Source: an uncultured Parachlamydiaceae bacterium
GTDB taxonomy: Bacteria > Chlamydiota > Chlamydiia > Chlamydiales > Parachlamydiaceae
DNA length: 64,000 nucleotides
Direction of reading: 5' to 3'
Assembly (NCBI GenBank): GCA_963742415.1
Contig: CAVULX010000004.1
Location: forward strand, 1,248,001-1,312,000
The translations under genes were made by a program, and so were the position numbers. This document shows positions 32,967 through 41,216 of this stretch, piece by piece (position 1 is the stretch's first letter; every line of letters starts with the position of its first letter). Under the pieces are notes generated by a model that saw only the letters and a list, made by a program, of their open reading frames with translations, was not told the DNA's origin and did no database searches.

Positions 32967-34061
32967 ATGGTGAACAATCTTTTAAGCCGCACTGTGGATG
33001 ATTGGACATATTTTTCCATCTCACCAATTGAAAATGTTTACACATTCCACAATCTGTCAGATAACCAAGCAAACGGGAAGGAAAAGCATTCACTCTGGGG
33101 GACTATTCCAGACACGACTTTAAATCCGCAAAATTTAAGCAATATCTCATCTAACTCTGGAAGCAAACCAATAGATGAAAAGGTGTATAAATGCTTCATG
33201 TGTCAAATGGAAACTATTCCTAAACAACGACGCGGAGGTCCTTGGGGTACAAACACCCTTTGTAATCCTTGTGGTACGAAATACGCTAAAAAAGCTTCTC
33301 TTTTAAAAGACAAAACAAACCAGGACATTCCTTACATTCCATTAGAATTTTATGTTAAACCTCAAAAGCATTATTCTTTTATAGGAGTAGGATTCAAAGA
33401 AGTGCCTGAATTCTTAGAGGAAATAAAGCAATATTTTACACCCACGAAATGTAAAGAAATCGAGGAATTAGCAAATAATTTTATAGAAATCGGGAAAAAA
33501 ACACAGAAATACAAAAAAACTCTTCTAAAAAACACTCCAATAAATGCTGACCATATCAGAACTTATGTAGAACTTGCAAGATCCCTATGTGCTATTGAGG
33601 ACAAATCTAAAAAAAATAGCAGCAATCCGTCCAAAAATAGGGAAAAGATGAAAAACACATACAAACTTGTCAGTGAGCAAAAATATGTAGGAATTACTCG
33701 AGAAGGTAAGCAAGTAGATCTTGAAAGGCTATCCCCCGATTTGGAAGCAATAGAAGCTTATATAATCAGCAGGGAAAAGCGTATTATAGCAACAAATGTT
33801 ACTGCAAACAGATCCAGAAAAACAGGAACAAAAAGAAAAAAATCTGCTGTGGATTCTGTGAAAAAGATTCCGCAACGTCGTGACCCTACTGAAGAGAAAA
33901 CCAATACATCTAAAGAGAAAGCCTCAGAAGCTCTTACTATTAATTCTGAAGGAGCTGCAAAACCGCTAAGAAAAAAAAGAAAAATTGATTCAGTGGTAGT
34001 TTCTGCGGAAAAGACTCTCAGTCGTCATGATCTGAAATTTATTTTAAATTCAGATAAATGA
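32967..34061 (+). CDS. GATA-type zinc finger protein, paralog 1 (most divergent)
   Basis: CFMC-X19-CNPC with RGGPWGTNTLC; IPLEFY..P and LEAIEAY shared with paralogs; PLRKKRK; C-terminal DLKFILN. Confidence 0.85.
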   Translation: MVNNLLSRTVDDWTYFSISPIENVYTFHNLSDNQANGKEKHSLWGTIPDTTLNPQNLSNISSNSGSKPIDEKVYKCFMCQMETIPKQRRGGPWGTNTLCNPCGTKYAKKASLLKDKTNQDIPYIPLEFYVKPQKHYSFIGVGFKEVPEFLEEIKQYFTPTKCKEIEELANNFIEIGKKTQKYKKTLLKNTPINADHIRTYVELARSLCAIEDKSKKNSSNPSKNREKMKNTYKLVSEQKYVGITREGKQVDLERLSPDLEAIEAYIISREKRIIATNVTANRSRKTGTKRKKSAVDSVKKIPQRRDPTEEKTNTSKEKASEALTINSEGAAKPLRKKRKIDSVVVSAEKTLSRHDLKFILNSDK

Positions 34062-34064
34062 CTC

Positions 34065-34097
34065 AACTTTTGAAGGGGGTTTCTCCCCCCTAAAGTT
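34065..34097 (+). terminator. Hairpin after GATA paralog 1
   Basis: aactttt-gaaggggg-tttct-cccccc-taaagtt. Confidence 0.55.
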
Positions 34098-34292
34098 TAG
34101 GACGAAAAACTTCCAAATGCTTAACCGCGAATATCGCAGGCATTCAGCCTGGGAAAGGAGTAAACTATATATTCTTTTAATTTTAAGAATTTAAACATTA
34201 CCAGTTATTTTTAATTTTACAAATAAATTATGTTTGATTATTTTTTTTGTGATTCTTTAAACAACTTTAACTTTTAATCAAGAGGTGGATTT

Positions 34293-35507
34293 ATGTCCTT
34301 TCTCAGTGAACTTGGTAATAACTATAATAATTGGGGAAATTACATCCCTCCAGATTACATGAGGAGCCCGTCGGACAATACGTCAACAAGCCAAACAAGC
34401 ACGGGGGAAGACTGTAAAGACATGGGCGCAATGGATGAGTTAAACACTCCTGGACTTGAAATATCTTCACCGCCTAATTTACATGCCTTACCATGGTTCA
34501 ATCATGCATTCAGAGCCCTTATAGATAAGGTCGAAACTGCGAATATTATTGCTAGCCTTTCAACCTCCCCCGCCCCTGTCTACATTAACATGAACATAAG
34601 CATGAATTTTCCGAATATCTTTATAGATTCAAACGAAGGCGCAAACCAATCGCAATCCCCAGCTCTGGAGAAAAAGAGGAAAAGGGTGAGAAAGGAAACA
34701 GATAAAAGTCTTATATGTTTCGTATGTTTCAATAAAAAAACACAACAAATGTGGCGCAGTGGTCCTTATGGTAAGAAAACACTTTGCAATGGATGTGGTC
34801 TAAAGTATTCAAAAGAGAGATTTAGACTAATACAAAAATGGATAAAGCACATTCCACTACAATTTTATGCAAAACCTAAGGGGGTTAAAAGGTCACCTAC
34901 TTCATTAAAGGACATAAAAAACTATTTTGATGAAAAGAAATTTCAAGAACTCGAGGCATTAACTGAGAAATATATATCAATTATGAGATCATCCGAAAAT
35001 CCAAATGCACTAATAGTTGGAAGTGATCTCATCACAGCTTATATTCGACGCGCTAAAAAACTCTGTTCTGTTGAAGAGGCTGAGCAAACCTCATCTAGAA
35101 TAGGAGAAGGCACGAGATGCGCTCGGCTAATAATAGGTGAATATACTGGAGCTACCCAGGACGGCAAAATAGAAGCGCTTCCTGAAGGACTCGCATCAGA
35201 TGCTGCTGCAATCGAAGCTTATGTCAAATGCTTTACTTTGTATAGTAATAGGGATCGTTGCCCGACAGAAGAAAAAATCGAGCACTACAAAAGGCAACTG
35301 AAATCAAAAACCCCCGAAACATCAAAAGAACCACAAACTAAAAGGCAAAAAATTGATGGGAGTGACATTGTAAGTCCTATTGACGAGATATCCCTCATGC
35401 CTGAAGAGCAAATTGATCTTACTGACGAGCCTCAAGCAATTAGAAAGCGATTTCGCTTTTATTTTAAATTCAATGGCGACTCACTTCCGATAGTCCAGAA
35501 CCCATAA
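34293..35507 (+). CDS. GATA-type zinc finger protein, paralog 2
   Basis: CFVC-X19-CNGC with WRSGPYGKKTLCNGCGLKY; KKRKRVRK. Confidence 0.9.
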   Translation: MSFLSELGNNYNNWGNYIPPDYMRSPSDNTSTSQTSTGEDCKDMGAMDELNTPGLEISSPPNLHALPWFNHAFRALIDKVETANIIASLSTSPAPVYINMNISMNFPNIFIDSNEGANQSQSPALEKKRKRVRKETDKSLICFVCFNKKTQQMWRSGPYGKKTLCNGCGLKYSKERFRLIQKWIKHIPLQFYAKPKGVKRSPTSLKDIKNYFDEKKFQELEALTEKYISIMRSSENPNALIVGSDLITAYIRRAKKLCSVEEAEQTSSRIGEGTRCARLIIGEYTGATQDGKIEALPEGLASDAAAIEAYVKCFTLYSNRDRCPTEEKIEHYKRQLKSKTPETSKEPQTKRQKIDGSDIVSPIDEISLMPEEQIDLTDEPQAIRKRFRFYFKFNGDSLPIVQNP

Positions 35508-39530: not shown

Positions 39531-39603
39531 CTTACCTTTCCAGTCCTCCAGAACCCATAATTTCAATTTATAGGCCGAAGGCTTTGGCCTTCGGCCTTAA
39601 GGT

Positions 39604-39857
39604 TTGGCATTTTAAATAAATTCCCGAAGGGAATCTTGAGATTGGACATTTTGTAAAAAAATATTTACATTATCACATCTCTATCGCCGCTACCGCATAG
39701 GCATCAAGCTAAAGTAAACTATTTCTTACCAGGCTGAAAGCCTGTCATATAATAGCCTGGGGCAGCGCCCCAGGTAATATCATGCATAATCATTTGCTTT
39801 TTCACTGATCGGTTCCATTTTATTTTGACTGACCACTTTCCTTTTTCCTTTTTTCCG
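39604..39857. repeat. Duplicated downstream block (REP fragments plus a piece of the neighbouring gene's 3' end)
   Basis: Closely matches 41234-41421 and then 41538-41600; includes CAGGCTGAAAGCCTG and CCTGGGGCAGCGCCCCAGG hairpins. Confidence 0.9.
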
Positions 39858-40031
39858 TTAGATATCCATATTTCAACCGGAGTGTTCGCTACCATCTATG
39901 TTTATTAAATAATTAAACATTACCAATTGTTTTTAATTTATAAAAATATTTTATTTGATTATTTTTTTGTAATAGATTATTATTTTTTAAGCATTAAACA
40001 AAATTAACTTTTAATTAAGAGAGGTAAATTT

Positions 40032-41216
40032 ATGGAACCCTATAATAGGTATGCTCCGGGAGAATATCGGCATCCCCCAACCCAACCAAACATAGTTCAA
40101 AGCAACCCACACTCGGGTAATTCTCCATTGATAGATTTGACGATGGAAAGTTTGGGAAATATTGCAAGTAGAACCAACCAAGCAGTTATATCACAAAACG
40201 ACACCAGACCAAATGTTACCATTAATGTCAACTATCGTCCCCAAGTAGTTATCCAAACCAGTCCAATAGAAAGAGATAGCATTCCTCAAAGAAAATTTAC
40301 TTTCTACGAATTCCAATCAACTCCAAGGGAAAGGAGAACAAAGCCAGTAGATACAAGTCAGCTTGTATGTTTCGTATGTTTTGAGCAAAAAACAGGGGAT
40401 CTGTGGCGCAGTGGTCCTCACGGCAATTACACACTTTGCAATGGATGTGGTGTAAAGTATGGAAGAAATATATATAGCCTGAAAAAAGGATTTATAAAGC
40501 ACATTCCACTACAATTTTATGCAAAACCTGAGGGAGTTCAATCTATAGAAGGCAGAGAATTAAACGACTCACCCGACTTTTTACAGAACATAAAAAAATA
40601 TTTTGATGAAAATAAATTTAAAGAGCTCGCGTCATTAGCTGAGAGATATAAATCAATTAATAGATCAACCGGTGGCCCAAAAACAGCAGTAGTTGAAATA
40701 AAAGCTAATCACATTAAAGCTTATATTCAACGTGCTAAAAACCTCTGTTCTCTTAAAGATGAAGCTGATCAAAACCCATCTGGAAGGGGAGGCACGAAAT
40801 GCCGTGCGGTGAAAATAGGTAATTATGACGGAACTACCTTTGATGGCAAAACAGAAGAGCTTTCTAAAGAACTAGCAATAGACGCTGCTGCAATCGAAGC
40901 TTATGTCCATCAGTTTACTTGGGATAGAAGTCTATGTTCGACACAAGAAAAATATGATCACAACATAAGACAACTGGCCTTGCTAGAAACATCTGAAATA
41001 GATGAAACATCAAAAGAGCCACAAGCAAAAAGGCGAAAATTTGATATCAATGACATTTTAAATCCTGTTGAGGATGACTCCTTAATGCTTGAAGATCGAA
41101 TTGCTCCTACTGGCAAGCCTGAAGGGACACAAACACAACCAAGAAGAGATTTTCGTTTAGAATTAGCTTATATTGTAAACCCTTCAAATAACGACTCATT
41201 TAATTTCAATTTGTAG
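40032..41216 (+). CDS. GATA-type zinc finger protein, paralog 6
   Basis: CFVC-X19-CNGC with DLWRSGPHGNYTLCNGCGVKY; AKRRKFDINDILNP; RLELAYIVN. Confidence 0.9.
   Translation: MEPYNRYAPGEYRHPPTQPNIVQSNPHSGNSPLIDLTMESLGNIASRTNQAVISQNDTRPNVTINVNYRPQVVIQTSPIERDSIPQRKFTFYEFQSTPRERRTKPVDTSQLVCFVCFEQKTGDLWRSGPHGNYTLCNGCGVKYGRNIYSLKKGFIKHIPLQFYAKPEGVQSIEGRELNDSPDFLQNIKKYFDENKFKELASLAERYKSINRSTGGPKTAVVEIKANHIKAYIQRAKNLCSLKDEADQNPSGRGGTKCRAVKIGNYDGTTFDGKTEELSKELAIDAAAIEAYVHQFTWDRSLCSTQEKYDHNIRQLALLETSEIDETSKEPQAKRRKFDINDILNPVEDDSLMLEDRIAPTGKPEGTQTQPRRDFRLELAYIVNPSNNDSFNFNL

Follow-up and report, generated by a model that had tools for sequence, protein, structure and literature searches.

A tandem family of amoebozoan-type GATA proteins in a Parachlamydiaceae genome with a conserved short motif that may dock on a Tup-type corepressor

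Short peptides through which eukaryotic DNA-binding factors recruit corepressors are the closest described counterparts of a motif that recurs among six GATA zinc-finger proteins (p1 to p6), encoded in tandem in 64,000 nucleotides of DNA from an uncultured Parachlamydiaceae bacterium (assembly GCA_963742415.1, contig CAVULX010000004.1, forward-strand positions 1,248,001 to 1,312,000; this whole stretch is hereafter the window, and positions are given in its numbering). The eh1 motif (FxIxxIL), which needs Phe, Tyr or His first (PMC4901127), depends on Groucho in flies (PMC9890238) and is also carried by ichthyosporean GATA factors (PMC4943189). Groucho is placed in Holozoa plus two excavates, and Tup_N proteins in fungi, Amoebozoa and others (PMC4943189, Copley 2016); the pocket of Tup is argued to clash with the Phe of eh1 and predicted to take eh1-like motifs that lack this first Phe (PMC4943189). 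In yeast MATalpha2, the N-terminus of which reads MNKIPIKDLLNPQ, mutation of Ile4, Leu9 or Leu10 disrupts the interaction with the WD40 domain of Tup1, and the spacing is eh1-like (PMC4943189; PMC4901127). As for GATA factors, [VI]xx[IL][LM] is conserved in Fep1 of S. pombe, a partner of Tup11/12 (PMC4943189), and residues 151-200 of the yeast GATA repressor Dal80 bind the WD40 domain of Tup1 (PMC10163088, Lettow et al. 2023). The corepressor-binding regions mapped in Sko1 and Dal80 contain LSSLLNLP and LSTLLEP, respectively (PMC10163088 Table 2), strings whose relation to the window motif is one of resemblance only, the critical residues having been mapped to neither. Minimal yeast repression regions (50-60 amino acids) bind Sin3, Cyc8 and Tup1 alike (PMC10163088), and how Tup-family corepressors recognise the many DNA-binding factors with which they partner is still poorly defined (PMC4943189; PMC10163088).

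Here, we report that p1-p6 are a tandem family of eukaryote-type, and more precisely amoebozoan-type, GATA zinc-finger proteins in a Parachlamydiaceae genome, and that they share with amoebozoan GATA factors a common architecture – a basic stretch KRGRK..D(K/S)S, a GATA finger, a disordered tail and, at or near the C-terminus, Phi-x-Phi-x-x-Phi-L-N (Phi being a hydrophobic residue). An earlier note on the same DNA, made from the sequence alone, had read the motif as eh1/Groucho-Tup1-like; its hydrophobic spacing is indeed that of Groucho/Tup ligands, but Phe occupies position 1 in only 2 of the 9 copies in the window and in 2 of the 44 copies that we collected. The best reading is that the motif is related to eh1 in spacing but is Tup-type, Phe at position 1 not being obligatory, and the account that we favour, with a confidence that falls a little short of even, is that it would be a docking motif for a TupA-type corepressor on secreted nuclear GATA mimics. 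A literature search on GATA proteins in chlamydiae found no paper.

A short motif specific to the GATA proteins

The window proteins carry a conserved, selected short linear motif specific to GATA proteins. Five of the six paralogs (p1 and p3-p6) have [LH][DE][LI]x[FY]I[LV]N near the C-terminus, whereas in p2 it lies out of frame, and p4-p6 have a second, internal motif, [FI]DxNDxLNP, right after a KR[RQ]K cluster (all copies are listed in the table below). Every string that the earlier note had quoted was found in the translations where the note had placed it, including FDINDILNP of p6 directly after KRRK, but p2 had been left out of its list although SDFAFILNS is readable there in the +1 frame, at 35446-35472. 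The C-terminus of p2 (35380-35510) is out of the frame of the family, and its in-frame tail extends into a stretch whose homologue in p5 is 3' flank, which reflects either a real frameshift, p2 being a decaying copy, or an assembly error.

The specificity of the motif was judged against the whole genome, represented by 2568 six-frame open reading frames (ORFs) of at least 100 amino acids, or 825,845 amino acids in all. The pattern [LMIFVH].[LIVM].[FY][IL][LV]N has five matches in this sample, all in p1, p3, p4, p5 and p6, and [FILMV]D[ILMV]ND.LN has three, all in p4-p6. A loose eh1-type regular expression (an ELM-like pattern) matches 519 times, approximately once per 1,590 amino acids, so that the exact match of FDINDIL to FxIxxIL, which was singled out in the earlier note and does fit, carries little weight alone. 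The loose core Phi-x-x-Phi-L-N is terminal, that is, within the last 14 amino acids, in 32 of the 2562 other ORFs (1.25%). Other ORFs that end in ..ILN or ..LLN – those of a signal-peptide protein, an M48 peptidase, a UPF0137 protein and one protein without a family – are unrelated and have no DNA-binding domain, and the motif is therefore no general C-terminal export signal in this genome.

Since p4-p6 (63-69% identity overall) have the tails of recent duplicates, conservation among them tells little, and the informative comparisons are those with p1, p3 and other genomes. Both p1 and p3 keep the motif despite only 27-30% identity to p6. Furthermore, P0005, an 80% identical relative of p3 encoded on a metagenome contig of 1,269 bp, has LNLDYILN where p3 has LDLHYILN: both x positions differ, and L, L, Y, I, L and N have stayed.

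As for the composition of the motif, position 1 over the 44 collected copies (in which positions 3, 6, 7 and 8 were set by the collecting regular expression, except in the window copies) is M in 12, G in 7, H, L and S in 4 each, I in 3 and F in 2; 24 copies have F or Y at position 5, unlike eh1. In the nine window copies, position 1 is F twice, H once and otherwise L, I or S; positions 3, 6 and 7 are aliphatic in eight, the exception being the internal copy of p4 with its Arg at position 6, and a single copy fits strict FxIxxIL. The collection as a whole does not, as a rule, show the F, Y or H that eh1 needs at position 1. What it does show is the Phi-x-Phi-x-x-Phi-Phi spacing of MATalpha2, which allows an aliphatic position 1, together with a location outside folded domains and conservation while the flanks drift, as in MATalpha2. 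At the level of residues, IPIKDLLNP of MATalpha2 and IDLNDILNP of p5 are identical at positions 1, 5, 7, 8 and 9 (5/9) and conservative at 3 and 6. Owing to the rarity of Phe at position 1, the aromatic residues at position 5 and the presence of Tup in Amoebozoa, the better analogue is the MATalpha2-type IxIxxLL and not metazoan eh1. The collected copies were also considered against consensus patterns for SUMO-interaction, LC3-interaction, CRM1 export and PDZ motifs, none of which they fit.

The motif in other chlamydiae and in amoebozoans

GATA genes were found in 9 of 73 genomes of the family, in 11 of 400 genomes in a sample of the phylum and in none of 90 genomes in one large family. Complete GATA ORFs numbered 21 in 13 other chlamydial genomes (leaving uncounted a 55-amino-acid frame in G426 and an open-ended ORF in G013), and 11 of these have Phi-x-x-Phi-L-N at the C-terminus or at most 5 residues from it: 3/3 in G010, 2/4 in G005, 1/2 in G343, 2/2 in G013, 1/1 in G426, 1/1 in G428 and 1/1 in G062 (core only). 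Examples that stand directly before the stop codon are MAISYLLN, MGIGFLLN, IKINYLLN, TSINDLLN and NKISFLLN. There is no terminal core in the GATA ORFs of G012, G169, G373, G162, G340 and G236, and a profile scan of genome contigs gave one locus, in a Parachlamydiaceae metagenome-assembled genome, which duplicates a G005 ORF and is without the motif. The earlier note had staked its reading on conservation in homologues from other genomes, and the motif was found in other chlamydial genera as well as in amoebae.

Beyond chlamydiae, a profile of the six paralogs was searched against 1.84 billion representative proteins. Full-length matches were restricted to the window family (four cluster representatives, P0005 included), which makes the region of ~170 amino acids that follows the finger unique to this family; the other 146 best non-window GATA relatives match through the finger. 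The core lies within 14 residues of the C-terminus in 26 of these 146, and exactly at the end in 11, when 2.3 would be expected near the end given the 54 core matches present anywhere in the 146 (binomial p ~1e-21). The pre-finger KRGRK..D(K/S)S is also found in 19 of the 26, among which there are two G010 proteins and one doubtful case (MGVVVN).

The source was looked up for 30 relatives, a biased sample since they were picked for carrying the motif at one position or another, and an organism label was available for nine. All nine come from amoebozoan transcriptomes: three from Paradermamoeba, three from Gocevia and one each from Thecamoeba, Filamoeba and Phalansterium. Seven have the motif within 14 amino acids of the C-terminus, and the proteins of Filamoeba and Phalansterium have HSIE[LI]LLN just after the finger. 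The small GATA factors of Paradermamoeba, Gocevia and Thecamoeba (EukProt), which are uncharacterised, are like the window proteins in their KRGRK..DKS, their single finger and their terminal MxIxxLLN or xDLxFILN, but lack the middle region of ~170 amino acids. The common basic stretch, finger and terminal motif make the window proteins ones of amoebozoan-type GATA architecture.

A broader metagenome scan (alignment A2) yielded 79 loci, the majority of them GATA genes of the ordinary, eukaryote-like kind; the terminal core is rarer there, at 6 of 76 complete distinct ORFs. Another profile (alignment A3) had no match in the metagenomes. A word-index homologue search with p6 gave three matches, window paralogs only, the index being too insensitive for such short proteins, and the same type of search with a 22-sequence alignment gave seven matches only. 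The ESM Atlas returned generic GATA clusters only, with scores <=0.89. The nearest of its clusters to P0116, a 192-amino-acid GATA protein of G010 (0.89), has 71 members and is labelled Viruses, most commonly Uroviricota; GATA fingers may circulate in viruses too.

The array, its fingers and its surroundings

The six ORFs lie on the same strand within 32967-41216, code for 296-409 amino acids each and are separated by spacers of 215-501 bp. The array is flanked by a pyruvate kinase gene on one side and a gene with an FGE-sulfatase domain on the other, and is located inside a 1.34-Mb contig, which indicates a bacterial chromosome and no stray eukaryotic contig. A six-frame search of the whole 2.69-Mb genome gave p1-p6 as its only GATA matches. 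In this search, five of the six fingers scored above the curated cut-off of Pfam GATA (PF00320, 26.8 bits), p1 reaching 26.0 bits; when hmmscan was run on the proteins, four of six were above it (31.2-36.6 bits), with p5 at 26.5 and p1 at 22.3. All six have C-x2-C-x18/19-C-x2-C, which falls within the finger signature C-x2-C-x17-20-C-x2-C, as well as R.GP.G and T[LF]CN.CG, and the pre-finger KRGRK..D(K/S)S is present in p2-p4.

In an AlphaFold2 (AF2) model of p6, the finger has a predicted local distance difference test score (pLDDT) of 71-84; the finger and the next ~100 residues, at 65-84 taken together, are the only moderately confident parts, and Foldseek recognises the finger only. The best Foldseek match of the finger is AtGATA18 (TM-score to the target 0.84-0.88, root-mean-square deviation 0.9 A over 35 columns), with an E-value of 0.36 because the domain is so short. 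Residues 1-107 and 294-394 of p6, the latter containing the motifs, have a pLDDT below 50 and are predicted to be disordered, as the earlier note had held for the tails. In a model of the 192-amino-acid G010 protein, made from 22 aligned sequences, the finger is at 85-94 and the terminal motif is a four-residue helix at ~73 with weaker flanks, which is as expected for a docking motif; in this model the helix may pack on the finger.

The region shared after the finger (IKHIPLQFYAKP ... AAIEAYV) spans approximately residues 150-330 of p1, p2, p4, p5 and p6 (40480-41020 in p6), and p3 holds its first part only. It has no Pfam family, no Foldseek fold match and, in the profile search of 1.84 billion representative proteins, no relative outside the window family.

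Basic clusters of the type KR[RQ]K[FI]D are found in five of the six paralogs, the internal motif overlapping the last two residues of the cluster, and PPAKRQKID of p5 resembles the NLS (nuclear localisation signal) of c-Myc, PAAKRVKLD (PMC2817886).

Positions of the GATA genes and of their fingers, basic clusters and short motifs in the window
Feature	Position	Strand	Basis
GATA paralog p1 (364 aa)	32967..34061	+	ORF; Pfam GATA 22.3 bits
GATA paralog p2 (404 aa), frameshifted C-terminus	34293..35507	+	ORF; Pfam GATA 34.8 bits
GATA paralog p3 (296 aa), without most of the shared middle region	35743..36633	+	ORF, Pfam
GATA paralog p4 (398 aa)	36889..38085	+	ORF, Pfam
GATA paralog p5 (409 aa)	38301..39530	+	ORF; 30.1 bits in genome six-frame search
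GATA paralog p6 (394 aa)	40032..41216	+	ORF, Pfam; AF2 model
p1 GATA finger, C-x2-C-x19-C-x2-C	33192..33272	+	Pfam, genome search
p2 GATA finger	34716..34796	+	Pfam, genome search
p3 GATA finger, KKKKRGRKELDKS just before finger	36253..36330	+	Pfam, genome search
p4 GATA finger, KRGRKALDSS just before finger	37276..37353	+	Pfam, genome search
p5 GATA finger	38715..38795	+	Pfam, genome search
p6 GATA finger	40368..40448	+	Pfam, genome search; Foldseek best match AtGATA18 finger
p1 basic cluster KKRKID, NLS-like	33972..33989	+	resemblance to c-Myc NLS
p2 basic cluster KRQKID, NLS-like	35340..35357	+	translation
p4 basic cluster KRRKFD, NLS-like	37909..37926	+	translation
p5 basic cluster KRQKID inside PPAKRQKID, NLS-like	39360..39377	+	translation
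p6 basic cluster KRRKFD, NLS-like	41028..41045	+	translation
p2 degenerate internal motif IDGSDIVSP	35352..35378	+	translation
p4 internal motif FDMNDRLNP, Arg at hydrophobic position 6	37921..37947	+	translation, pattern search
p5 internal motif IDLNDILNP	39372..39398	+	translation, pattern search
p6 internal motif FDINDILNP, directly after KRRK	41040..41066	+	translation, pattern search
p1 C-terminal motif HDLKFILN, 3 aa from end	34026..34049	+	translation, pattern search
p2 C-terminal motif SDFAFILN, +1 frame only relative to p2	35446..35469	+	frame reading
p3 C-terminal motif LDLHYILN, 25 aa from end	36532..36555	+	translation, pattern search
p4 C-terminal motif LDIAFILN, 5 aa from end	38044..38067	+	translation, pattern search
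p5 C-terminal motif LEIAFILN, 5 aa from end	39489..39512	+	translation, pattern search
p6 C-terminal motif LELAYIVN, 11 aa from end	41157..41180	+	translation, pattern search
aa, amino acids.

The spacers that follow p5 (39531-40031) and p2 (35508-35742) are homologous, reading ..LQNP(stop)FQ.[IL]GRRLWPS.. in one frame, so that the duplicated unit takes in the 3' flank; at 501 bp, the p5-p6 spacer is twice the length of the others. The array is followed immediately, on the opposite strand, by an ORF of 764 amino acids (41494-43788, minus), in which a long, acidic middle of low complexity separates a signal-like N-terminus from an FGE-sulfatase domain at the C-terminus. The ORF immediately upstream of p1, of 222 amino acids (32169-32837, plus), belongs to no Pfam family, and its N-terminus is predicted to be like a membrane anchor.

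Tandem GATA arrays of two or three genes also exist elsewhere in Parachlamydiaceae, at loci L008 (G010:C2:818736-822161) and L047/L050 (G013:C110), and a gene-dense JGI metagenome contig of 6,321 bp has the tandem GATA genes P0054, P0061 and P0126; most copies in these other arrays end in the same motif. In another chlamydial family, locus L029 (G340:C14:16847-19927) codes for a protein of 255 amino acids (ORF 1342-2109, minus) with five or six GATA-like fingers, which begins with MNVSSLLD, that is, with the same hydrophobic spacing placed N-terminally as in MATalpha2.

Possible partners of the motif and described counterparts

A plausible course of events is that (i) p1-p6 would be exported, probably by a type III system (the genome codes for two FHIPEP and two secretin proteins), (ii) they would enter the nucleus of the presumed host, an amoeba, via KR[RQ]K[FI]D and the pre-finger basic clusters, (iii) their fingers would bind GATA sites, (iv) one copy of the motif (p1, p3) or two (p4-p6) would dock on the WD40 domain of a Tup1/TupA-type corepressor of the host, in a manner likened to that of the N-terminal IxIxxLL of yeast MATalpha2 and (v) host genes would be repressed, or those host GATA factors that rely on this motif as well would face competition. 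That p1-p6 amount to a complete mimic of a eukaryotic repressor, as the earlier note proposed, is something that we infer. A wider proposal, which we put forward tentatively and consider possible rather than probable, is that environmental chlamydiae captured amoebal GATA factors together with their own corepressor-docking peptide and inject them as ready-made repressors, and that terminal Phi-x-Phi-x-x-Phi-L-N would be the hitherto undefined general motif for Tup/TupA interaction in Amoebozoa, and perhaps in fungi as well (MATalpha2, Sko1 and Dal80 may be compared), a Tup-side counterpart of metazoan eh1 that would have come to light because a bacterium retained it.

Several points weigh against docking on a Tup-type corepressor. 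These are that (i) 10 of the 21 other chlamydial GATA ORFs are without the motif, (ii) p2 lost it by frameshift, which makes it dispensable for some copies, (iii) the frequent aromatic residue at position 5 and the invariant Asn are undescribed for eh1 and for the MATalpha2 motif in the sources drawn on, (iv) four positions of the collected copies were fixed by the way of collecting them, and the relatives looked up for their source were chosen for the motif, (v) the amoebal sequences, which come from transcriptomes, could in principle include symbiont transcripts, (vi) the N-terminus of MATalpha2 is counted among the atypical NLSs too (PMC2817886) and (vii) short hydrophobic motifs are promiscuous, the yeast regions binding Sin3 and Cyc8 besides Tup1 (PMC10163088).

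This promiscuity leads directly to the possibility, unlikely in our view although far from negligible, that the motif is a real nuclear docking motif with a partner other than the Tup/Groucho WD40 domain, such as the PAH domain of Sin3, Cyc8 or a coactivator/Mediator surface, in which last case the proteins could be activators. The Sin3-interaction patterns Phi-x-Phi-x-x-Phi and Phi-x-x-Phi-x-Phi (PMC10163088) may be set beside Phi-x-Phi-x-Phi-Phi-Phi in the window, yeast repression regions do not discriminate between these corepressors, and all the conservation evidence is compatible with any partner; yet the closest match at the level of residues is the Tup1-binding end of MATalpha2, with which the internal copies share Asp5, Asn8 and Pro9, and the flanks of the motif are basic (RRDKR..; K/R-M in the amoebal copies), unlike those of acidic activation motifs. 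It is improbable that the motif has no host role at all, as an inherited relic of amoeba-derived genes or in proteins that act inside the bacterium. The patchy distribution of the GATA genes fits recent transfers, and p2 and nearly half of the other chlamydial ORFs do without the motif, but the paralogs share a middle region absent elsewhere, which means that they diverged inside this lineage, and they kept the motif while falling to 27-30% identity; the x positions drift and the hydrophobic positions and Asn stay (P0005 vs p3), and an exact C-terminal motif is present in six of the eight other Parachlamydiaceae genomes with GATA genes.

The motif could also be a signal for nuclear targeting or stability, either a degron or an atypical NLS like that of MATalpha2, instead of a site for cofactor recruitment, since MNKIPIKDLLNPQ is tabulated as such an NLS (PMC2817886) and the internal copies abut a basic NLS-like cluster. 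We rate this as highly improbable: classical basic clusters are already present before the finger and as KR[RQ]K, and the motif sits at the extreme C-terminus in small proteins and in two copies in p4-p6. Strict metazoan-type eh1 binding Groucho/TLE, which FDINDIL of p6 would fit and for which the Groucho dependence in flies (PMC9890238) and the eh1 of ichthyosporean GATA factors (PMC4943189) could be invoked, has a very slim chance of being correct, given that the strict pattern covers one of nine window copies and Phe is at position 1 in 2/44. In this form the reading of the earlier note is not supported: Copley 2016 puts Groucho in Holozoa and Tup, with a pocket predicted to be incompatible with the Phe of eh1, in Amoebozoa (PMC4943189). 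That the motif is of the plant EAR type (LxLxL or DLNx(x)P), with a TOPLESS-like protein as its partner, is scarcely credible. The window motif is amphipathic and contains Leu-x-Leu as well as DLN strings (LDLHY, IDLND), and pathogen effectors with EAR motifs exist, but none of the nine window copies fits LxLxL or DLNx(x)P (consensus from PMC9956375), four residues separate N from P in DLNDILNP, F or Y stands at position 5 in place of L, and the labelled relatives are amoebozoan, not plant.

Among the described systems, the Tup1 motif of MATalpha2 (Komachi et al. 1994, cited in PMC4943189 and PMC4901127) is the closest, having the same Phi1-x-Phi3-x-x-Phi6-Leu7 followed by Asn and often Pro, an aliphatic residue instead of Phe at position 1 and a location at a protein terminus, in a non-domain region. 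It differs in being N-terminal on a homeodomain protein, whereas the window motif is C-terminal or internal on GATA proteins and has an aromatic position 5 in its C-terminal copies; binding is proven for alpha2 only. The eh1/octapeptide/TN motif of Engrailed, Nkx and Fox proteins a ligand of the Groucho/TLE WD40 domain, shares the hydrophobic spacing, a short helical propensity, a disordered location in DNA-binding factors and, on the favoured reading, the function in repression, but its partner Groucho is holozoan and its position 1 is F, Y or H, as opposed to mostly M, L, G or I here. In Fep1 and Dal80, a GATA finger is accompanied by a binding region for Tup11/12 or for the WD40 domain of Tup1, with a sequence relationship to the window proteins shown for the finger only. 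The short and strongly conserved terminal motif common to amoebal and bacterial GATA proteins offers a concrete peptide for the question of how Tup proteins recognise their partners.

On the side of microbial proteins, bacterial proteins that enter host nuclei are already known, and TAL effectors bind DNA but activate. Plant-pathogen effectors with EAR corepressor motifs are already known too, and XopD, PopP2, HaRxL21 and Jsi1, which bind or mimic partners of TOPLESS, are comparable with p1-p6 as microbial proteins with a host-type corepressor docking motif; as far as the sources drawn on describe them, they differ in motif class, target domain and their plant hosts, and are no copies of a host DNA-binding factor. 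Should our preferred reading be true, p1-p6 would be bacterial copies of a host DNA-binding factor that keep the cofactor-docking peptide of the host, that is, a more complete mimicry, and the first such case for amoeba-associated chlamydiae.

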